This document shows, one piece after another, positions 23,322 to 46,780 of a DNA stretch of 64,000 nucleotides (the stretch's first letter is position 1; every line of letters starts with the position of its first letter). Made by a program: the position numbers and the translations under genes. The notes beneath the pieces are model-generated. The model was given only the letters and a program-made list of their open reading frames with translations. It made no database searches and had not been told where the DNA came from. The DNA is from a virus (Duplodnaviria; Heunggongvirae; Uroviricota; Caudoviricetes), in IMG/VR virus record IMGVR_UViG_2713896908_000007; one strand, written 5' to 3'.

Positions 23322-24341
23322 TTATTTAAATGGATTGATTGAATTATTAAACGTGATGATGCTTGTCTCACACGGTGCCTGGACGTTAGCCGCTTGCGGA
23401 ACCTCCTTAATTTTCTTGGTGACAGGCAAGTTGCGTGCTCCAACTTTGATCAGAGATTCGAAAAGTGTGGCAACGATTTTTGCATCACCAGGTTCTTTGA
23501 GGCGGAATGCGTCTTTTTGGGCGGCGGAGACGAAGATTGGGAGGTTATCCAGTTCGTCTTGCATCGCTGCCAGCACATCATCGCGGATACCCGCTGTTTC
23601 CTCCAGCAAAGCGATTCGCGCTTCAGCATCTGCGATCTTGGCCATTGCTTCGAGGTGGCGGCCCTGGCTTTCGAGTAGTGCAGTTTCCAGTTCTGCCGTA
23701 CGCTCTGTCGCCTCCACCATCATTTCCAGTTCAGCCATTTTGCCGTAATGGGATATAACGGCCTGCACTGACTCGTCGGAGTACCCATGCGCCGCCAGGG
23801 ACTCTGCCAGTAAGGATTTAGAATCCGCGCTTTCAAACATTCCGGCGCTGGCAGGATGATCCAGGCTGATATAGTTCGGCGTTGTCACATAATCCACACC
23901 ATGGAAGCTGGTGGTTACAGCGATTTTCCCGGACTCACGCCCGCCAGTGGCCCAGCTCCAGCCACCAGCTCGGCTTTCGATCATCGCGGCGACAATTTTA
24001 CCCGGCTCTGTGTTAAGAATTTCCTGTGTATGGGTAACGATTCCGTTGTCGTCAACAGATATAGCCACTGTGCGGCACGCTGGAACATTGTCGATTACGA
24101 CCGGGCGACCTTCCACCATGATCACGCTGGTTTCTGGTACTTCCAGTTTGCCGGTCAGCTGTCGGCGACCGTGACCGTAATAGCCGAAAAGCTCACCAAG
24201 GCGTAAACCTTCCTGAGTTTCCTTGCTTTCAAGCATGGTCTTAACCGCGCTTAATACATACTGTCGCCCGTTCTGGCGACCTTTTCGAGCATTGCTATAG
24301 AGACAAAAGCGGTCAGTGACCGTTTTCAAAACATCAGTCAT
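23322..24341 (-). CDS. Putative prohead protease/scaffold (Pro-like, 339 aa)
   Basis: GGAGGG 7 nt upstream; C-terminal coiled coil; assigned by position next to portal-like gene. Confidence 0.55.
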   Translation of the reverse strand: MTDVLKTVTDRFCLYSNARKGRQNGRQYVLSAVKTMLESKETQEGLRLGELFGYYGHGRRQLTGKLEVPETSVIMVEGRPVVIDNVPACRTVAISVDDNGIVTHTQEILNTEPGKIVAAMIESRAGGWSWATGGRESGKIAVTTSFHGVDYVTTPNYISLDHPASAGMFESADSKSLLAESLAAHGYSDESVQAVISHYGKMAELEMMVEATERTAELETALLESQGRHLEAMAKIADAEARIALLEETAGIRDDVLAAMQDELDNLPIFVSAAQKDAFRLKEPGDAKIVATLFESLIKVGARNLPVTKKIKEVPQAANVQAPCETSIITFNNSINPFK

Positions 24342-24399
24342 TATATTGCCCTCCAGCTACCTTACCTAATGTCTGTTGGTATATTGGCTTTGATAACAT

Positions 24400-25616
24400 T
24401 TTCGTCCGTGTATTCATTTATATACTCATTAGTTTCAATGTATTATATAGAACATGAAGCGTGCCTATAAATATCGATTCTATCCAACTCCCGAACAAAC
24501 CGAGCTATTAGCCCGGACTTTTGGGTGTGTGCGTTTTGTCTATAACAGCCTCCTTCGCTGGCGTACCGATGCATACTACGCACGCCATGAGAGGGTCGGC
24601 TATGCACAAGCCAGCGCCAAATTAACGGCACTGAAAAAAGAACCAGAATTCGCTTGGCTGAATGACGTTTCCTGCGTCCCCCTCCAGCAGTCTCTGCGCC
24701 ACCAACAAACGGCTTTTGCTAACTTTTTCGCCGGGCGTGCTGCATACCCAGTTTTTAAGAGCAAGCGGCATAAACAGGCCGCAGAACTAACTGCCAGCGC
24801 ATTTAAATACCGTGACGGCAAGCTGTACATGGCAAAGAGCAAAGAGCCGTTAGATGTTCGCTGGAGCCGTCCGTTGCCGTCTGCTCCATCCACTGTCACT
24901 ATCACCAGGGATGCTGCCGGACGATATTTTGTATCCTGTCTCTGCGAGTTTGAGCCTGTATCACTGCCGATCACCGTTTCCACGGTCGGCATTGATATTG
25001 GTTTAAAAGATTTGTTCGTCACCGATACCGGTTTCAAAACTGGCAATCCTCGACACAACGCTAAATACGCGAAGCGATTAGCAGTGTTACAGCGCAGATT
25101 GAGCAAGAAACAAAAAGGCTCAAAGAACCGCGCCAAAGCACGTTTAAAGGTTGCCCGCCTCCACGCGAGAATAGTCGATTGTCGGATGGATAACCTGCAT
25201 AAGTTGTCCCGCAAACTGATTAACGAAAACCAAGTTGTTTGCGTCGAATCCCTTAAAGTGAAAAACATGATCCGTAACCCGAAGCTGTCTAAAGCAATAG
25301 CTGACGCAGGCTGGAGCGAACTTGTACGCCAACTCCAGTACAAAGGAGAATGGGGTGGACGTAGCATTGTCGCTATCGACCAGTATTTCCCTTCTTCCAA
25401 ACGTTGCAGCAGTTGCGGCTTCACCATGCAAAAAATGCCTCTTAATATTCGTAAATGGCACTGCCCGGAATGTGGCGCAGAGCATGATCGTGATATTAAC
25501 GCGGCCCGTAATATAAAAGCTGCCGGGCTGGCAGTGTTAGCCCTTGGAGAGTCTGTAATTCCTAAGCCGCTTCATGTGGTTTAGGTCGGACTCTGTGAAT
25601 TGGGAATGTTTGCCGT
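24400..25616 (+). mobile_element. TnpB-only IS200/IS605-family insertion between pro and prt (ends not defined)
   Basis: tnpB ORF fills the pro-prt intergenic space; no terminal hairpins recognised. Confidence 0.4.
24454..25584 (+). CDS. tnpB: TnpB (IS200/IS605 OrfB, RuvC-like RNA-guided nuclease family, 376 aa)
   Basis: N-terminus MKRAYKYRFYPT; RuvC-like motifs IGIDIGL, VCVESL, HDRDINAARNI; CxxC..CxxC zinc finger. Confidence 0.9.
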   Translation: MKRAYKYRFYPTPEQTELLARTFGCVRFVYNSLLRWRTDAYYARHERVGYAQASAKLTALKKEPEFAWLNDVSCVPLQQSLRHQQTAFANFFAGRAAYPVFKSKRHKQAAELTASAFKYRDGKLYMAKSKEPLDVRWSRPLPSAPSTVTITRDAAGRYFVSCLCEFEPVSLPITVSTVGIDIGLKDLFVTDTGFKTGNPRHNAKYAKRLAVLQRRLSKKQKGSKNRAKARLKVARLHARIVDCRMDNLHKLSRKLINENQVVCVESLKVKNMIRNPKLSKAIADAGWSELVRQLQYKGEWGGRSIVAIDQYFPSSKRCSSCGFTMQKMPLNIRKWHCPECGAEHDRDINAARNIKAAGLAVLALGESVIPKPLHVV

Positions 25617-27347
<1,731 letters not shown>

Positions 27348-27413: not shown

Positions 27414-30400
27414 ATGAACAAGCTATCTATGGGGGTGTTTCGCTGTTCAAGCGTCAGCGAAATATTGAAATATATTAGGGCAATAACATCTCACCGAGCG
27501 CCGATTAAATACGGCGTGGAAAAGGTGGAAGGCAAAAGCTATGACCGACTGCGCCGGGAGGCGAATCAGAAGGCGATAGATTTGCTTAATTCGCTGGTGG
27601 ACGGCGCGACACTGACAGATGAACAGCGCCAGATCCTGGCTGGGTACACCGGTGAAGGCGGCATTGGCGGGTCCGTCTCCGAATATTACACACCAAAGCC
27701 GATCGCTGAAGGTGTCTGGGAGATCATGAAGCTCTACGGCGCGGACGTAGGTAACACTCTGGAACCATCGGCGGGAACCGGCGTTTTTAATGAGACAAAA
27801 CCGGTTGGTACGGTGATGACCGCGACTGAGATCAGCAGTGTTTCCGGTCGTATAAACCAGTTGTTACACCCGGAAGACAGCGTACAGATTTCCCCGTTCG
27901 AACAGCTGGCTATAAGCACGCCTAACGATTCATTCGACCATGTTGTGGGTAACGTTCCGTTCGGCGGTCGTGATAACACACGCAACATCGATAAGCCTTA
28001 CGCAGAAGAAACGGACATGGGTTCTTACTTCATGCTCCGCATGCTGGACAAGATAAAGCCAGGCGGATTCATGTGCGTGATTGTGCCGCCGTCCATTGTT
28101 TCAGGTTCAAACATGAAGCGGTTACGCCTGCGCCTATCACGGAAAGCTGAATTTCTTGGTGCCCACCGCTTGCCTACCGGTACTTTTGACGCAAACGGGA
28201 CCAGTACAGTCGTTGATGTGGTGCTGATGCGCAAACATCCGGCAGAGATGGCTGAGAAAATCCCCCAGGTGGATGAAAGCACTCTTGAATCGGCAAATGT
28301 GCTTTGGCCAACGTTTATTTCAGGCAAGTGGTTTGAAAAGGACGGACGCCGGTTTGTTCATGGTGCCCAGGAAAAGGGCTTCCAGGGGCGTATTGAGGTT
28401 CGTGCCGACGGGCAGATTGATAACCAGGCTCTTAAAACGAAGCTGATTCATCGTTTCGAAAGTCGTATCGACTGGTCTTTGCTCGATATGGCTGAACCGT
28501 CACCGACCGCAGATGTTGTTGATGAAGGGGAAATGCGCCTGATTAATGGCGTATGGCAAAAATATGCTGGTGGTCGCTGGATTGAAGCTGATGCTGGTAA
28601 GGAGCTTAAGATTGATGCTGCCAGTTATGGCGCGGATAGCTGGGAGGCTCTTCAGCGTAACCTGACTACAACAGAAGGCCGTCTCGGTATGACATTTACC
28701 CAGATGGCAAATGTCCGCGATAAGTACACCACATCAATCAGCGACGATATGGTGCAGCTGGTGGACTGGATTAACAGCCAGCCTGAAAAATACCGTGAAC
28801 GCTTGTATCGCGGGGCGATGATTGGCCGGATGTTAATTGAATATCAGGACATGAAGGCCGCCGGGCATAGTGCTGAACAAATCGAACAGCAGCGCCTTTC
28901 TCTGGTATCCCGTTTGCAGGCAGAGATTGATCGCTTTGGTAATCCTGGTCGCGGTCCTATAGCGAAATTGTCGGGGAGCGGTGCGCGCGCCTGGTTTGCT
29001 TTCCGTGGTGCGATTAAGCTGGATGGCACTATTTCTGACGAGCTGACAGGAAAGCTGGTTACGCATGATTCCAGCGCCAGTTATGACTCCACCAGCTATC
29101 AGGACACCCTGCGTTATCTCTATAGCGATCTTACCCGCGATCCAATCCAGCTCGATGATTTCCGCCTTGCGTTTACCGGCGAACTGCCAGCCAGTGATGA
29201 AGAGTTGCTTAATTTATTGGCCAGCACCCCTGGTATTGCGGTTTCACCGTATGGCGGGATTGTTCCGTTCGCCCGCGCCACCAGCGGCGACATTAACGAG
29301 ATAGTGGCTCCAAAACAGGAATTTCTTGCCACACTCCCCGACGGTCCAGTAAAGAACAACGTCCTTAATCAGCTGGCAGCGATCGAAGAGAAGCGCATCA
29401 AGACGCCAGCAGAGAATATCCGGTTTAAGCTCAATAGCCGTTGGTTTGACCGTTCCGTCATTCTGGAATTTTTGCAGGAAAACGGCTATCCGGATCTGCG
29501 CTATGTGCAGTCAGTGCAGCTGGAAGGCGACGAAATGGTTTCTGACACCTATCACGGTGGTGATGGTCTGTTCGTCGGGCACCGATACGGTGTCGTCCAG
29601 CGCAAGGATAAAGAAACAGGCGAGATCCGCTACGAGTGGGACCGTAAATCAGGTGAAAACGCGACCGGGTTCCCGGCACAGCTGGAAAAGTATCTCAATG
29701 GTGCGCGTATCGGTGGCAAAGATAGCGCGACGGCGAACGGCTACCGCGAGCAGATGGCACTGCTTGAGGACCAGTTCAATAAGTGGATCAAGACGCACGA
29801 TCGCTACGATGAACTGGTTGCCAAATACAACGATGTGTTCAATAGCAATATCCCGTATGAACACTCTGGCGATCCGCTTGGGTTGAAGGGATTAAGCGGT
29901 AAGCGCCAGCCATTTGATTACCAGAATAGCGAGGTGCGCCGACTGTCCGAAGATGGGCGCGGCATCTTGGGCTTCGGCACCGGGCTGGGTAAAACCACGA
30001 CCGCGCTGGCGCTTGAGGCGTTCAACTATGAGAACGGTCGCTCCACCCGTACTGCTTATGTAGTGCCTAAATCAGTGCTGGAAAACTGGTATTACGAAGC
30101 AAAAGAGTTCCTGAGTGAAGAGGCATTCAGTAACTACCTGTTCGTTGGTCTTGATGTGCTGATGGATGGCGATCAGATTCGCCAGGTGCCGGTGCTCGAC
30201 GAGAACGGTAAACCTGTCCTTGGCGCTGATGGCGCTCCCGTTATGCGCGATGCTCTTAAACTGGCAGATGAAGCCACTATCACAGCAAGGATGAACGCGA
30301 TTCCGCACTCAAATTACCGTGCAGTCGTGTTTACCAAAGAACAATACGCCCGCATTCCGCTACGTGATGACACCGTAGATGAGCATGCACAAGACATGCT

Positions 30401-33188
30401 TTATGACTTCGTTGCTGCCGGACGTGTGGCCAGCGCAATGGATTCCGACTCCCACCGCAAAGAGGCGGCGCGTCGCCGGGTATTGTCGGAGTATTCAGAT
30501 ACCGGTACCGAAAAAGCAGAGAAGTATCCGTACTTTGAGGATATGGGCTTCGACAGCGTGATTGCTGACGAAGGCCACAACTACCGCAATAGCTATAAAA
30601 ATGGTCGCGAAGCGTCACAGCTGGCCTATCTGCCCACCAGCGCGGTGGCGCAATCGGCGCGAGATATGGCAATCAAAAACGCGTACCTGATGAAAAAGAA
30701 TGGCGGGCGCGGGCCGGTTCTCCTGAGTGCAACGCCAGTCGTTAACACCCCGATCGATGCATACAACATGCTTTCTCATGTTCTGCCGAAGGAATACTGG
30801 CAGAAGATGGGGATCTACGGTCCTGATGACTTCGTTAAATTCTTCGGCAAGACCAGGCTGGAAACGGTACAGAAAATCAGCGGTGAAGTTGAAGAAAAAA
30901 TGGCGCTGGTGGGCTTTGAAAACCTTGATGCGCTGCGCGGCATATTCCATCGCTGGACAACGCTTAAAACAGCGGAAGACGTTAAGGATACCGTGGAGAT
31001 CCCGGAGCTGGACGAGCACCAGCAGGATGCACCACTTACTGAAGAACAACTGGCGGCGTATGAAGAATTGCGTCAGCAGGCGGAAGCGGCGGCCAAAGCC
31101 AACAATGGCGTAACGACCTCGGTCAATGAAGACGGCGTGATTGAGCACGAGAAAGCCCGTCCGATCTTCTCAATAATCAGGGATATGGACCGCGTATGTA
31201 CTGACATGGACCTGTACTATCGCCGGATCACCTATCGTTTCCTGCCGGAGTACGCCGATGCGGTGCAGCAGCTGGCGGACAGTTTGCCTAAACAAGCCAC
31301 CAGCGAAGACGACGACAGTGATGATTCAATCACGCAGCAATCGCAATACTCCCTGATAGATAAGGGCGAGTTTATTCAGTTGCAGGTTCCGGAAGCGTTC
31401 GAGCAGGAAGTGAATAAGCGCCTGGCCAGGTTTGGCATTGACGAACAGACCGTAACTCACCCCGTTACGCCCAAATACGCGAAGCTGATTGCCACGCTGA
31501 AGGAGTTTTTCCCGGAAGGTAAGCAAATCATCTTCACCGATGAAAAAACGCAGCACCAGAAGCTCAAGCGCATTATCTGCAATGCTCTTAACCTTGAACC
31601 TTCAAAGGTGGGGATACTGAATGCTCAGACGGTTGCCGAGGCAGGTAAAACCGGTAAGAAACTGAAAGCGGTTAAACCGCCGAAAGAGTTACCGGATGAA
31701 CCAACAGATGCACAGATAGCGAAATACAACGAGCAAATGGCTCTGTATGACGCCTATATCGCGCAGCAAAATGAAATGTCGCTGGGCGGGCTGGAAAAGA
31801 TTGCTGCCGACTTCCAGGAGGGCCGGACTCCGATCATCATCTGCAACAAAAAGGCAGAGGTGGGTATCAACCTGCATCGAGGAACGACTGACATCCATCA
31901 TCTGACGTTGCCATGGACACCAGCCAGTATCGCACAGCGTAACGGTCGCGGTGCCCGAGTTGGCTCCAACCGTGCAAGCGTTCGCGTTCACTACTACTGC
32001 GGCAAGGGTTCTTTCGATGAATACCGACTGAAGACGCTGAAGCGTAAAGCAGGCTGGATCTCCGATATCCTCCGTTCAGATAAGTCAGAAATGGAGAACG
32101 CCGACGCCAACGATATGATCGAAATGCAGATGTATACCGCTAAGGATGATGGCGAACGTCTGGCAATGATGCAGGTTCAAATGGATAAGGCGAAAGCCGC
32201 GCAACGCGCTCGCCAGAAAGAACAGGCTACTATCGACCTTCAGAACTACATCAAGGCGCAGCACGCAGCTGGTGAGGATGTGGAGGTGCTTACCGCTGAA
32301 TTAGAGCGAAGCAAAGCGGAACTTGAAAAGACCACCGCCGACGTCGCCAAATTCAAACAGGCGGTAATGGCCAAAGCAGCTGATAACGCAGACTGGAAAG
32401 CCCGCTGGGGTAGCGTCCATCACACAGACCGTACGTTGTTAGCACAGTATCGCGCGTCGTTGAAAAGCGCCATTCAGCGCAAGGCTAATATCTCTCAAGC
32501 CATCTCCCGCTATGAGAAATTATTGAACCGTACTCAGAAGGCCGCGACGGATATCAAACGCCTGCGCCCGCTGGTGGAGGATGCAATAAATAAAGGCATT
32601 ATGGATGTTGATCCTGACTTGGTTAACCATGCGAGTGAGTTCCTTGTTATCGGCGATCGCTCATGGCGTGTAGGCCAATACTACGATTGTGCCGGTGATA
32701 TCGTTCGCATTAAGTCGCTGGACTTCGACAGCCAGCGCGCAGACGTGGAGATTATCTTTACCTTCAAAGGTACCAAATCGGGTAACTGGGATGTGAAGAC
32801 GCTGGATAAACAGGTTGATGTAACTCCCGATGAAGATGCTGTTATGCAGAAAATCAGTGGTGGCGTCTCCATCGCCGGGATTAACGACATCATTTCCTGT
32901 GACGATTTCTACCGTTTCCAGCAGCGCGGCATGATCAAAATCACTGACTCATACGGCGTTCAGACTACAGAGTCAGGCTATAGCATTGATTTTGTTGGTA
33001 CCTATACGGACCCACTGAAGCATGCGGTTTACCCGGATCGCCGTGACGGCGCGCTGAAGTCGTCAATTGCAAAATGGGTGCTTGGTATGATGTCGGAAGG
33101 GAATAACCGCCAGATCCGTTCGGCAGAAACATTCCTGGTTGAACTGTTTGGCTCCAATTATGGCGATGGGAGATACGCTATCCCCTGA
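27414..33188 (+). CDS. darB: DarB-like antirestriction protein, N6-adenine methyltransferase plus helicase domains (1924 aa)
   Basis: MTase motifs LEPSAGTGVF and VVGNVPFGG; helicase motifs GFGTGLGKTT and VIADEGHNYRN. Confidence 0.8.
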   Translation: MNKLSMGVFRCSSVSEILKYIRAITSHRAPIKYGVEKVEGKSYDRLRREANQKAIDLLNSLVDGATLTDEQRQILAGYTGEGGIGGSVSEYYTPKPIAEGVWEIMKLYGADVGNTLEPSAGTGVFNETKPVGTVMTATEISSVSGRINQLLHPEDSVQISPFEQLAISTPNDSFDHVVGNVPFGGRDNTRNIDKPYAEETDMGSYFMLRMLDKIKPGGFMCVIVPPSIVSGSNMKRLRLRLSRKAEFLGAHRLPTGTFDANGTSTVVDVVLMRKHPAEMAEKIPQVDESTLESANVLWPTFISGKWFEKDGRRFVHGAQEKGFQGRIEVRADGQIDNQALKTKLIHRFESRIDWSLLDMAEPSPTADVVDEGEMRLINGVWQKYAGGRWIEADAGKELKIDAASYGADSWEALQRNLTTTEGRLGMTFTQMANVRDKYTTSISDDMVQLVDWINSQPEKYRERLYRGAMIGRMLIEYQDMKAAGHSAEQIEQQRLSLVSRLQAEIDRFGNPGRGPIAKLSGSGARAWFAFRGAIKLDGTISDELTGKLVTHDSSASYDSTSYQDTLRYLYSDLTRDPIQLDDFRLAFTGELPASDEELLNLLASTPGIAVSPYGGIVPFARATSGDINEIVAPKQEFLATLPDGPVKNNVLNQLAAIEEKRIKTPAENIRFKLNSRWFDRSVILEFLQENGYPDLRYVQSVQLEGDEMVSDTYHGGDGLFVGHRYGVVQRKDKETGEIRYEWDRKSGENATGFPAQLEKYLNGARIGGKDSATANGYREQMALLEDQFNKWIKTHDRYDELVAKYNDVFNSNIPYEHSGDPLGLKGLSGKRQPFDYQNSEVRRLSEDGRGILGFGTGLGKTTTALALEAFNYENGRSTRTAYVVPKSVLENWYYEAKEFLSEEAFSNYLFVGLDVLMDGDQIRQVPVLDENGKPVLGADGAPVMRDALKLADEATITARMNAIPHSNYRAVVFTKEQYARIPLRDDTVDEHAQDMLYDFVAAGRVASAMDSDSHRKEAARRRVLSEYSDTGTEKAEKYPYFEDMGFDSVIADEGHNYRNSYKNGREASQLAYLPTSAVAQSARDMAIKNAYLMKKNGGRGPVLLSATPVVNTPIDAYNMLSHVLPKEYWQKMGIYGPDDFVKFFGKTRLETVQKISGEVEEKMALVGFENLDALRGIFHRWTTLKTAEDVKDTVEIPELDEHQQDAPLTEEQLAAYEELRQQAEAAAKANNGVTTSVNEDGVIEHEKARPIFSIIRDMDRVCTDMDLYYRRITYRFLPEYADAVQQLADSLPKQATSEDDDSDDSITQQSQYSLIDKGEFIQLQVPEAFEQEVNKRLARFGIDEQTVTHPVTPKYAKLIATLKEFFPEGKQIIFTDEKTQHQKLKRIICNALNLEPSKVGILNAQTVAEAGKTGKKLKAVKPPKELPDEPTDAQIAKYNEQMALYDAYIAQQNEMSLGGLEKIAADFQEGRTPIIICNKKAEVGINLHRGTTDIHHLTLPWTPASIAQRNGRGARVGSNRASVRVHYYCGKGSFDEYRLKTLKRKAGWISDILRSDKSEMENADANDMIEMQMYTAKDDGERLAMMQVQMDKAKAAQRARQKEQATIDLQNYIKAQHAAGEDVEVLTAELERSKAELEKTTADVAKFKQAVMAKAADNADWKARWGSVHHTDRTLLAQYRASLKSAIQRKANISQAISRYEKLLNRTQKAATDIKRLRPLVEDAINKGIMDVDPDLVNHASEFLVIGDRSWRVGQYYDCAGDIVRIKSLDFDSQRADVEIIFTFKGTKSGNWDVKTLDKQVDVTPDEDAVMQKISGGVSIAGINDIISCDDFYRFQQRGMIKITDSYGVQTTESGYSIDFVGTYTDPLKHAVYPDRRDGALKSSIAKWVLGMMSEGNNRQIRSAETFLVELFGSNYGDGRYAIP

Positions 33189-41871: not shown

Positions 41872-42054
41872 AATGGCAGCCTCCTTTTGCTAATTTAAGG
41901 AGCTACCGCGTGAGGTCTCAATCTCAATGGCGGTAGCACTGACTGGGTTGAGACTACCGGCGCAAAAGGGAACCGGCCTGCCTTTCGGCAGCCCAGCCAG
42001 CACTACCATTGATCTCTGAGCTAAACGCTACGTATGGCTGTGCGATGGCATGAC

Positions 42055-42079
42055 ACAAAAAAAGACGCTTTTGGCGTCT
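42055..42079 (-). terminator. Intrinsic terminator (AGACGC-caaaa-GCGUCU + U7) downstream of pacB
   Basis: 6-bp stem 42063..42079 with A-run 42057..42063 on plus strand. Confidence 0.6.
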
Positions 42080-42190
42080 GTGTCGCCTTTTGCATTATCC
42101 GGGGTCTCAATCCCGGCACCCGTTTTACTGAGGTGCCTGATAAGCATAAACCGAAAATGCCTCAAGGCGCAAGAGGTCAGGTTCAATGTA
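42055..42190 (-). ncRNA. Candidate c4-like antisense RNA of the immI-type module
   Basis: Hairpin CCGGG-AUUGAGAC-CCCGG presents a loop complementary to GGUAGUCUCAACC in the downstream icd leader (plus 41946..41958); ends in AGACGC..GCGUCU hairpin + U7. Confidence 0.35.
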
Positions 42191-44965: not shown

Positions 44966-45011
44966 AAAAGGCCCGGAACGGGCAAGCAATCAGCAAACAA
45001 CCGCCGAGAAC

Positions 45012-45034
45012 CCTCGCCCAATGCGGGCGGGGAG
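45012..45034 (+). repeat. Left flanking hairpin repeat of TnpB element
   Basis: CCTCGCCCAATGCGGGCGGGGAG; stem CGCCC/GGGCG. Confidence 0.8.
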
Positions 45035-45115
45035 GAAAGGCGGGAAAGCCCACAGGGCTTTAAAAAAAAATCATTACGGTGTTAGCATAAAAACCTGTAT
45101 CAATGAGCGGTGACT

Positions 45116-46291
45116 ATGTTAAGAGCGACAAAAGTACGCATCTATCCAACCACTAAACAGGCTGAGTATCTCAACGCCCAGTTCGGCGCCGTGCGTTTTG
45201 CGTACAACAAAGCTCTTCACATCAAAAAACACGCTTACCAGCGACACGGAGTGAATTTAAGTCCGCGTAAAGATTTAAAACCGTTGTTGTCTGTGGCGAA
45301 GAAGTCCCGTAAGTATGCCTGGCTTAAAGAATTTGATTCAATGGCATTGCAACAGGCGGTGATTAATCTTGATGTGGCGTTTTCCAACTTTTTTAATCCG
45401 AAGCTGAAAGCCCGGTTCCCGACGTTTAAACGTAAACATGGGAAGCAATCGAGCTACCATTGTGTCGGGATTAAAGTACTGGAGAATGCCATCAAAATTC
45501 CTAAGCTGGCACCGATAGAAGCGCGTATACACCGTGTAATGACGGGAAAAGTGACGAGCATAACAATCACTCGCAGTGCCACCGGGAAATACTACGCATC
45601 CATCCTTTGTGAAGACGGTATTCCCACACCAGCGAAACCTGCGTATCTGGAGGAAGAAAAGATTACTGGTGTGGATATGGGACTTGAGCACTATGCCATC
45701 AGGTCTGACCGGGCAAAAATTGCGAATCCCCGCCATCTCATCAATGCCAGCCGTAATCTGCGACGCAAACAAAAAGCGCTATCCCGCAAGCAAAAGGGAA
45801 GCGCGAATCGTAAAAAGGCCAGAATCCGTCTTGCGGCCATACACGAACGGGTAGCGAATGCCCGTGCTGATTTTCAACATAAACTTTCTCGTACAATTGT
45901 TGACGAAAACCAAGCGGTAATTGTCGAGACGCTGAAAACAGCCAACATGATGAAAAACCACAATCTGGCAAGAGCAATAGGTGATGCAGGCTGGCATAGC
46001 TTCATCACAAAGCTGGAGTACAAGGCAGCGGAAAAAGGCGTTCACCTGGTAAAACTCGACCAGTGGTTTGCCAGTTCGAAAACGTGCCATTGTTGTGGTT
46101 ACAAAATGCCGGAAATGCCGCTTCATAAACGCATCTGGCGATGCCCTGAATGTGAAGCAGAGCATGACCGCGATATCAATGCGGCACTCAACATCCGGCA
46201 AAAAGGGATACTGGAACTAAAGGCGGCGGGACTCGTCGTCTCTGCCCATGGAGGCCAGCGTAAATCCGTCGTACAGACGGTTGCGGCCTGA
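45116..46291 (+). CDS. tnpB: TnpB (IS200/IS605 OrfB family, 391 aa)
   Basis: N-terminus MLRATKVRIYPTTKQAEYL; RuvC-like motifs GVDMGL, VIVETL, HDRDINAALNI; zinc finger CHCCGY..CPECEAEHD. Confidence 0.9.
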   Translation: MLRATKVRIYPTTKQAEYLNAQFGAVRFAYNKALHIKKHAYQRHGVNLSPRKDLKPLLSVAKKSRKYAWLKEFDSMALQQAVINLDVAFSNFFNPKLKARFPTFKRKHGKQSSYHCVGIKVLENAIKIPKLAPIEARIHRVMTGKVTSITITRSATGKYYASILCEDGIPTPAKPAYLEEEKITGVDMGLEHYAIRSDRAKIANPRHLINASRNLRRKQKALSRKQKGSANRKKARIRLAAIHERVANARADFQHKLSRTIVDENQAVIVETLKTANMMKNHNLARAIGDAGWHSFITKLEYKAAEKGVHLVKLDQWFASSKTCHCCGYKMPEMPLHKRIWRCPECEAEHDRDINAALNIRQKGILELKAAGLVVSAHGGQRKSVVQTVAA

Positions 46292-46302
46292 GATGTGGGA
46301 AG

Positions 46303-46324
46303 CCTCGCCCAACCGGGCGGGGAG
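46303..46324 (+). repeat. Right flanking hairpin repeat of TnpB element
   Basis: CCTCGCCCAACCGGGCGGGGAG, 21/22 identical to the left copy. Confidence 0.8.
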
Positions 46325-46327
46325 CAG

Positions 46328-46780
46328 TCACATACGTGCGGATGTGGCATTACCGTAATGACGGTGCTGACGGGCCACCTTATTGAAAAGTTGACGCGCC
46401 ATTACCCAAGGCTGGTGCTCCCGGCGTTCCTTTTCGTCCTGCGTCATATAGAGTTCGTTCTGGAGTTTTTCATCAAACCGGCGCGGAGCGCGGCTACGGC
46501 GAAAGAATTCAGGATTCAGAGAGTGGATCTGAAATCTACGTGGGCGTGTACTGTCATCAATCAAAACAGACGAATACTTAGACACAGCAATAGCCTTTAA
46601 GCGCAGATAAACATCGCGCTTATCGACATCCAGATGCGGGTATTCCTTTTCAAGAATTGCTGCGAGTTCTTTCGCTGATAGAAGAGATTTAGTGCGGATC
46701 ATGTAATCCGCAATCTCGTACGATGTTATTCGTGAGTGATTTATTTCCATGAAGTGGCGTCCCTGCCAGTTAAGTAACAT
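46328..46780 (-). CDS. lpa: Late promoter activator Lpa-like (150 aa)
   Basis: AGGTGA 5 nt upstream of ATG 46780; operator-like site just upstream; position between pdcB and pacA. Confidence 0.6.
   Translation of the reverse strand: MLLNWQGRHFMEINHSRITSYEIADYMIRTKSLLSAKELAAILEKEYPHLDVDKRDVYLRLKAIAVSKYSSVLIDDSTRPRRFQIHSLNPEFFRRSRAPRRFDEKLQNELYMTQDEKERREHQPWVMARQLFNKVARQHRHYGNATSARM

Follow-up and report, generated by a model that had tools for sequence, protein, structure and literature searches.

A tnpB-only insertion sequence without a left-end hairpin at the prt/pro junction of P1-like phage-plasmids, probably maintained as an RNA-guided homing element

The DNA analysed here (the window) is a stretch of 64,000 nucleotides, IMG/VR record IMGVR_UViG_2713896908_000007 (Caudoviricetes), and belongs to a P1-like phage-plasmid: positions 24200..25800 are about 98% identical to P1, P7, SJ46, RCS47 and others, apart from an insert of about 1.3 kb between the portal gene prt and the head-processing gene pro. 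From its sequence we identify this insert with high confidence as a tnpB-only, tnpA-less, non-autonomous insertion sequence (IS) of the IS200/IS605 family (IS1341-type), belonging to the ISEc42/gipA subfamily and occupying 1295 bp (24342..25636). Elements of this kind are already known, and this one is annotated as such in GenBank; it is a defective member with an unusual population biology. We propose that it is an immobilised IS whose TnpB and omega RNA probably act as an RNA-guided homing or retention nuclease, so that it would persist as a selfish homing element. Our confidence in this mechanism is moderate.

The ends of the element were defined by base-by-base alignment to P1 and by an alignment with the ends of five related elements residing elsewhere (Gifsy-1 gipA and elements from one E. 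coli chromosome and from Citrobacter, Serratia and E. coli plasmids), within a comparison that took in about 50 relatives. The empty site of P1 reads CAGTCAT/TATCGTTT, the slash marking the point of insertion. Comparison of empty and occupied sites reveals no target-site duplication, P1 having ...CAGTCAT/TATCGTTTCCC... and the window ...CAGTCAT/TATATTGCCCTCC... at the left junction and ...TTGTCAA/TATCGTTTCCC... at the right. The insertion point therefore lies 3' of TCAT on the tnpB-sense strand, this TCAT being the reverse complement of the pro ATG plus one base, and TCAT also adjoins the left end in 30 unique contexts of relatives. On the left side, TCAT is followed by a conserved left-end start in the window and in three of the five relatives; on the right side, homology extends to an invariant GTCAA beyond which the flanks diverge. 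The lack of terminal inverted repeats and of a duplication, together with a fixed tetra- or pentanucleotide on the 5' side, is what characterises IS200/IS605 elements. We take the element to have entered a P1-like genome once.

An earlier note on this DNA had described a TnpB gene wedged between the protease and portal genes at 24342-25616, with almost no flanking DNA and no terminal hairpins, a description that holds in part. Its open reading frame (ORF), its motifs and the missing left hairpin stand, as do its gaps, 112 nt up to the ATG of pro and 32 nt up to the stop codon of the portal gene, which the ORF list and the sequence bear out, and the Shine-Dalgarno sequence of the protease gene that it placed in the larger gap lies there as GGAGGG. 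Its start is also the exact left boundary. The comparison with insertion-free P1-like genomes that it proposed places the right boundary at 25636 and not at 25616, and the phrase about flanking DNA does not survive: the 112 nt are the element's own left end, and the right end continues for 52 nt beyond the stop codon of tnpB.

The two ends differ in their state. Folded as DNA, the left end reaches only -2.5 kcal/mol (z=+1.06) and forms no stable hairpin, whereas that of the Gifsy-1 element is a perfect 20-bp palindrome (-32.5 kcal/mol, z=-7.6) and those of other relatives contain a GC-rich stem with an internal loop, the Citrobacter copy being among those with a left-end hairpin. The right end does possess a subterminal hairpin (DNA fold z=-2.3), with G-T/G-U and compensated pairs, so that of the two palindromes typical of IS200/IS605 elements only the right one was found, and the claim of absent terminal hairpins is correct for the left end alone. 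A TnpA was found neither in the element, which has no room for one, nor in the window, using an IS608 TnpA sequence as tblastn query. In the IS608-type mechanism the Y1 TnpA needs both subterminal hairpins. The P1 element is thus a defective member by descent and presumably not transposition-competent: by analogy with that mechanism, its P1 copy would no longer be excised or transposed because the left-end hairpin required by Y1 TnpA is absent. The suggestion of a decayed IS200/IS605 insertion fits the left end, the lack of TnpA and the single site, but not the right end, the omega-RNA scaffold or the tnpB ORF, none of which is decayed.

The encoded protein retains the features expected of an active nuclease of the ISDra2 type. 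Residues 3-365 align with ISDra2 TnpB (8EXA/8H1J, E=7e-77), and the Pfam families HTH_OrfB_IS605 (PF12323), OrfB_IS605 (PF01385) and Cas12f1-like_TNB (PF07282) all score above their cut-offs. In the alignment with ISDra2 TnpB the RuvC motifs GIDIG (D181), VES (E265) and HDRD at 344-347 (D345/D347) are conserved, as is the zinc finger CSSC...CPEC, which upholds the earlier description of a 376-aa TnpB with intact RuvC-like motifs and zinc finger. A TldR-type repressor was considered and rejected, since the RuvC D-E-D triad is intact and the protein has its full length. Within the P1 lineage, five of the six copies compared show between them 7 synonymous polymorphic sites in tnpB and a single non-synonymous one, against a neutral expectation of approximately 3.4 non-synonymous per synonymous change, that is, about 23 non-synonymous (binomial P about 2e-4). 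The ratio dN/dS to relatives outside P1 is about 0.1, and even the nearest of these, at a synonymous divergence (dS) of 0.6-1.0, has an ORF of the same length. tnpB is therefore under purifying selection. A putative sigma-70-like promoter precedes the gene, and the mRNA may be leaderless, as judged from sequence, because the -10 element ends 7 nt before the ATG and a Shine-Dalgarno sequence is absent. A similar layout is seen just upstream of the tnpB ATG in four of five aligned relatives.

The guide RNA had been expected to derive from around the 3' end of tnpB, which is right in principle. RNAalifold, applied to 45 non-identical relatives, gives seven helices in the last ~170 nt of the element. 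Their 35 predicted pairs are formed in 95.6% of cells, compared with 34-45% after the partners have been shifted by 1-3 columns; compensatory changes occur in 25 of the 35 (7 of 8 in helix 7, the right-end hairpin), and none of 500 shuffles reaches the observed values. In the covariance-model search that had been suggested for this region, a model built without the window sequence matches 25482..25636 over its full length (153.6 bits, E=7e-41), ending exactly at GTCAA, with the guide predicted to begin at 25637. Every helix is kept in the window RNA, which has wobble or compensatory pairs where it departs from the family consensus. At Rfam gathering thresholds there was no match in the region, no curated family covering this omega RNA; at permissive thresholds only RAGATH-18 appeared, below threshold, at 25541..25606 (21.8 bits, cut-off 44.9).

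The predicted 16-nt guide, TATCGTTTCCCTCTTT, is followed at the sequence level to its target. TCAT plus the 20 nt TATCGTTTCCCTCTTTAAAG is present exactly at the empty site in six insertion-free P1-like phages (P1, P7, SJ46, RCS47, 813R1 and Ro157c2YLVW). With TCAT as predicted transposon-associated motif (TAM), the predicted guide specifies the vacant prt/pro junction, the canonical target of a selfish TnpB. Self-cleavage would be avoided because the right junction carries TCAA and not TCAT, while the left junction mismatches the guide from position 4. TnpB with its omega RNA is reported to cut the vacant site beside the motif that TnpA also uses, which favours retention of the element and biases its inheritance (Meers et al., doi 10.1101/2023.03.14.532601; PMC10690162).

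The distribution of the element is narrow. Among 5426 complete E. coli genomes, 39 contain copies with at least 95% identity, most of which by far are on plasmids of 94-103 kb and at the same pro/portal junction; three records are ST2747 E. coli chromosomes containing an integrated P1 remnant in which pro adjoins the element. In one ST2747 record (L004, CP007394) homology to the window extends no further than 50 bp beyond the right end, and there is no portal gene. The element is also found on P1-like plasmids of E. albertii (one copy being 100% identical) and E. fergusonii. A P1-like portal gene occurs in 491 E. coli genomes, 452 of them with an uninterrupted prt/pro junction, giving about 8% carriers. 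The exact TnpB protein is present in 1686 blocks of the assembly collection, with the pro/portal context in all 10 of the places listed. Outside this site, no copy of at least 95% identity was found in the 5426 E. coli genomes, in 72,556 plasmids, in IMG/VR or in the assembly-index places read. The hairpin-less left end gave no metagenome-contig match in other contexts, and its exact matches in IMG/VR are three P1-like contigs only. Recognisable ends and identical copies in the host chromosome had been named earlier as the mark of a recent ordinary insertion; the right end is indeed recognisable, while copies beyond the P1 context were not found in these collections. The nearest relatives are 80-86% identical, over the ORF only, and reside in other contexts. 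About 343 E. coli genomes match the element at 80-90% identity.

Diversity within the element contrasts with that of its flanks. Five carrier genomes were compared with the window without gaps. Differences number 3-6 (15 in one copy) over the 1295 positions of the element, 13-18 over the 1020 of pro and 22-34 over the 1702 of prt, the overall divergence among copies of the element being 0.2-1.2%. The dS averages 0.016 in tnpB, compared with 0.061 in pro and 0.060 in prt, so that the synonymous diversity of the element is approximately a quarter of that of the flanks. By their flanks the carriers are not a clade: mean differences in pro are 14.4 between carriers, 16.7 between carriers and non-carriers and 14.1 between non-carriers, the corresponding values for prt being 25.3, 25.9 and 23.1, and the pro gene of one carrier is 5 nt away from that of insertion-free RCS47 and 18 nt from that of the window. 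The element is a young allele of single origin in P1 backgrounds as diverse as the whole group, and therefore has been transferred by recombination in the flanks.

Taken together, these results are consistent with the following mechanism. The omega RNA would be transcribed from about position 25482 through the right end into the flank, and TnpB would be loaded with the resulting guide. Guide and TAM would then direct the nuclease to intact prt/pro junctions, either in P1 relatives or in a copy from which the element had been lost. A genome cut in the same cell would be repaired from the IS-bearing copy or lost, and the element would thereby be kept and, through homologous (break-induced) recombination in its flanks, passed to other P1 backgrounds without a transposase. 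The phage would tolerate the insertion since the left end supplies pro with a replacement Shine-Dalgarno sequence and the portal ORF stops a few codons into the right end.

Several observations weigh against homing. A single recent insertion that then underwent ordinary recombination, without any drive, would likewise leave an IS of low diversity between diverse flanks, and the population data do not separate drive from drift; nor do the present data as a whole separate selfish drive, a benefit to the phage through competitor exclusion, and neutral recombination of a recent insertion. The clean zone beside the element extends only ~100 bp on each side and is not significant at the density of single-nucleotide polymorphisms in the flanks. 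P1 is a low-copy plasmid with immunity and incompatibility, and meetings with insertion-free relatives may be rare. The TAM is read from the insertion site alone, and expression of the omega RNA and DNA cleavage are predictions from sequence. The promoter call is weak, such sites being no more numerous than in shuffled sequence. The tnpB ORF is frameshifted in two copies (L143 and L002), possibly through sequencing error, the L002 record at least having several other split genes, and another copy (L170) shows 7 non-synonymous and 6 synonymous changes. Finally, vB_EcoM-673R5 comes from a survey of clinical isolates by genome sequencing, and no carrier has been demonstrated as a viable phage. 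In the L170 copy (pEC21Z048-103K), substitutions cluster at the window equivalent of 24550..24765, which could reflect relaxed selection or a recombinant segment.

Among other explanations, domestication by the phage would have the nuclease destroy incoming insertion-free P1-like genomes, or the insertion retune expression of pro and the portal gene. The exact match of the guide to such competitors, purifying selection on tnpB in an element with no route of transposition, and the uncoupling of pro translation from prt together with the altered portal C-terminus all agree with this, and the related GipA of Gifsy-1 is a reported virulence factor (GenBank AF246666 annotation; PMC3627910). However, only ~8% of P1-like elements are carriers, the same architecture is found in non-phage contexts, the intact RuvC site argues against a repressor of the TldR type, and a benefit to the phage is indistinguishable from selfish drive; we therefore regard domestication as unlikely. 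Of the two options offered earlier, a decayed IS or a domesticated TnpB, decay is thus supported for the left end, whereas domestication is neither shown nor needed, guide and TAM fitting the vacant site.

It is quite improbable that the insertion is an inert relic, a neutral passenger with inactive TnpB and omega RNA that looks intact only for lack of time. The decayed left end, the two frameshifted copies and the one rich in non-synonymous changes, and the small divergence among copies point that way; the 7:1 excess of synonymous changes, the retention of all omega-RNA helices through wobble or compensatory pairs, and an ORF of exactly the family length despite the dS to the nearest relatives point the other. 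Least probable of all is an ordinary recent IS, still mobile through a host TnpA acting in trans and of low diversity merely through recency, for although the family is mobile elsewhere (~84 distinct contexts, up to five copies in one Serratia genome) and the right end and the TCAT/TCAA sites are intact, the left-end hairpin with its internal guide loop is absent in all nine P1 copies compared, no genome has the element at more than one site, and no copy lies beyond the pro/portal junction in the collections given above. Homing of an immobilised IS thus remains our preferred reading.

The position of the element against a start codon proved to be a property of its subfamily, defined by the left end TCAT/CAGAATGCCTCC. 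Contexts were collected by tblastn-anchored searches (loci L003, L005, L006 and L011-L145, plus window positions 24338..24354). In most cases the TCAT corresponds, as reverse complement, to the ATG of a gene and the base after it, and an opposite-strand ORF of at least 60 aa starts exactly at the junction in 26 of 30 unique contexts. Of the reconstructed empty sites, 18 of 22 are first-ATG starts of ORFs of this kind, compared with 8.6% of 1407 control ATGA sites from the same loci (Fisher P=1e-15). In the subfamily the displaced native Shine-Dalgarno sequence lies in the right flank and a substitute GGAGG is present in the left end, about 7 nt from the docked ATG. At four ATGA stop/start overlaps, the TTGA of the right end, read on the other strand, restores the upstream stop and leaves the protein unchanged. 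Several contexts are phage morphogenesis operons, including gpZ/gpU of Gifsy-1. The P1 insertion is therefore typical of its family and not wedged between genes by decay. Docking at start codons points to a target choice that involves more than the tetranucleotide or, alternatively, to strong selection in favour of insertions sparing the operon, and an operon-compatible habit, if true, would explain why the subfamily, including relatives such as gipA, is frequent inside phage late operons.

The same arrangement is seen in detail at the P1 site. In P1 the stop codon of prt overlaps the start codon of pro (ATGACTGA), and the late promoter LPpro serves both genes; the insertion falls inside this overlap and separates the start codon of pro from the native Shine-Dalgarno sequence. 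The GGAGGG of the left end has the same spacing to the pro ATG as the native GAGGG. On the other side, the last 20 nt of the element overlap the portal ORF, whose final six codons and stop are IS sequence; because the ORF reads into the right end, the portal C-terminus ...EGNDND* of P1 is replaced by an IS-encoded ending. Annotation of carrier phages should treat both the C-terminus of the portal protein and the ribosome-binding site of pro as IS-derived. Coordinates are given in Table 1.

Table 1. Features of the element and its neighbours in the window
Feature	Position	Strand	Basis and remarks
pro, head-processing protein, 339 aa	23322..24341	-	ORF list, P1 annotation and alignment; ATG at 24339..24341, CAT on the + strand, the last three bases of TCAT
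TCAT, insertion target and predicted TAM	24338..24341	+	Host sequence, unduplicated, directly 5' of the left end; same TCAT in relatives
Left end, 112 nt	24342..24453	+	DNA fold and alignment; without GC-rich hairpin; identical in nine P1 copies compared
Outward Shine-Dalgarno sequence GGAGGG	24349..24354	-	8 nt from the pro ATG; replaces the native one, now 1.3 kb away
Putative sigma-70-like promoter, TTTATA-18-TATTAT	24417..24446	+	Consensus scan; -10 ends 7 nt before the tnpB ATG
tnpB, 376 aa, predicted ISDra2-type RNA-guided RuvC nuclease	24454..25584	+	ORF list, Pfam, PDB match, dN/dS
omega-RNA scaffold	25482..25636	+	Covariation, covariance model; spans the final 103 nt of tnpB and all of the right end
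Right-end subterminal hairpin, GTTTGCCG-TTTA-TGGCGGAC	25608..25627	+	Last omega-RNA helix; portal stop 25617..25619 in the loop
prt, portal gene, 573 aa	25617..27338	-	ORF list, P1 alignment; C-terminus altered by the insertion
GTCAA, right-end terminus	25632..25636	+	Conserved in nearly all aligned relatives
Predicted 16-nt guide template	25637..25652	+	Directly 3' of the right end; native P1 portal 3' end and native pro Shine-Dalgarno sequence

Further features were noted in the same region. On the minus strand at 25520..25534, where CTTTTATATT follows the reverse complement of omega-RNA helix 2, the sequence resembles a weak intrinsic terminator facing LPpro transcription towards pro; the region has eight terminator-like sites, compared with 1.8 expected. 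An antisense stop-free frame of 275 aa (24600..25427, minus strand), with counterparts of ~190-326 aa in most relatives examined, was treated as a probable artefact of codon usage, its product being of low complexity and rich in Cys, Trp and Arg.

The window contains a second tnpA-less TnpB element, at approximately 44993..46331 on the plus strand, the exact boundaries being ambiguous by a few bases. Its TnpB has 393 aa and is 40% identical to the first; the element shows 80% nucleotide identity to the ISEc46 orfB of phage RCS47, possesses a left-end hairpin, and is matched by the omega-RNA model at 46162..46331 (70.6 bits). Docking on the GTG start of pacA was considered for this element and rejected, since alignment with P1 places it at the stop codon of lpa and upstream of LPpac, a late promoter. 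With its right end (GTCAC) comes a new stop that changes the Lpa C-terminus from ...ARI to ...ARM. Elsewhere in the window, a darB-like ORF (27414..33188, plus strand) encodes 1924 aa, compared with 2255 aa in nine of ten further carrier contigs for which it was listed, and may be truncated, frameshifted or a different allele, and Rfam matches at 41926..42136 on the minus strand correspond to C4 antisense RNA (75 bits) and isrK (58 bits).

An element combining a dead transposon end with a predicted live TnpB and guide scaffold, whose predicted target is present in ~90% of related phage-plasmids, offers a natural test of TnpB-only homing, and with it of whether TnpB alone can maintain an element and spread it between co-resident viral or plasmid genomes. 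We tentatively entertain a joint reading, possible although we would not favour it as a whole, in which the P1 TnpB-omega RNA pair has escaped its transposase and spreads among P1-like phage-plasmids by RNA-guided homing alone, possibly also serving as a weapon against insertion-free competitors, and the ISEc42/gipA group consists of 'operon-compatible' IS that settle on ATGA starts and bring their own Shine-Dalgarno and stop signals. In the searchable literature we found no description of this insertion in P1-like phage-plasmids, of start-codon docking, or of a transposase-free homing TnpB or operon-compatible IS.

Among known systems, IS608 of Helicobacter pylori shares with the P1 element the lack of inverted repeats and of target duplication and insertion 3' of a tetranucleotide. 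The right end of the P1 element finishes in TCAA and has GAAT 5' of the foot of its hairpin, both as in IS608. IS608 has tnpA and the target TTAC, whereas the P1 element has the target TCAT and neither tnpA nor a left-end hairpin. ISDra2 is autonomous, having tnpA, and uses the TAM TTGAT; the P1 element differs in lacking tnpA, in its inferred TAM TCAT and in its hairpin-less left end. The TnpB of ISDra2 (Deinococcus radiodurans; 8EXA, 8H1J, 8BF8) shares its domain order and its RuvC and zinc-finger motifs with the P1 protein, and its guide scaffold likewise overlaps the 3' end of tnpB and the right end.

Closer relatives show what the P1 element has lost. A single-copy member in the chromosome of E. 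coli MCJCHV-1 (L005), of the same family and architecture and ~81% identical, lies between ybhB and bioA, against the ybhB start, and has its left-end hairpin intact, unlike the P1 element; this is the neighbourhood of the lambda attachment site. The gipA element of the Salmonella prophage Gifsy-1 (AF246666; NC_010392) is 79.7% identical in nucleotide sequence over the ORF, encodes a protein of the same 376 aa, and shares the TCAT target and the GTCAA right end. It likewise lies antisense in a phage morphogenesis operon (gpZ/gpU), directly against a start codon. It differs in keeping the perfect left-end palindrome and in a right end that restores the upstream stop, so that the neighbouring protein is unaltered; a virulence phenotype is reported for gipA and none is known for the P1 element. 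ISEc42, an ISfinder name, is the label given to the present insertion in GenBank ON470615.2.

TldR proteins, which derive from TnpB and are often encoded on prophages (PMC10705468), are without an active RuvC site, whereas the P1 TnpB has the D, E and D residues. The free-standing homing endonuclease genes of T-even phages (seg, mob) cut the allele that lacks them and spread by recombination, with co-conversion of the flanks (PMC13565253; PMC2330249). By analogy, the P1 element resembles them in placing a nuclease gene between conserved phage genes and, as we infer, in homing; it differs in that its protein belongs to an unrelated family and its specificity would come from an RNA guide.

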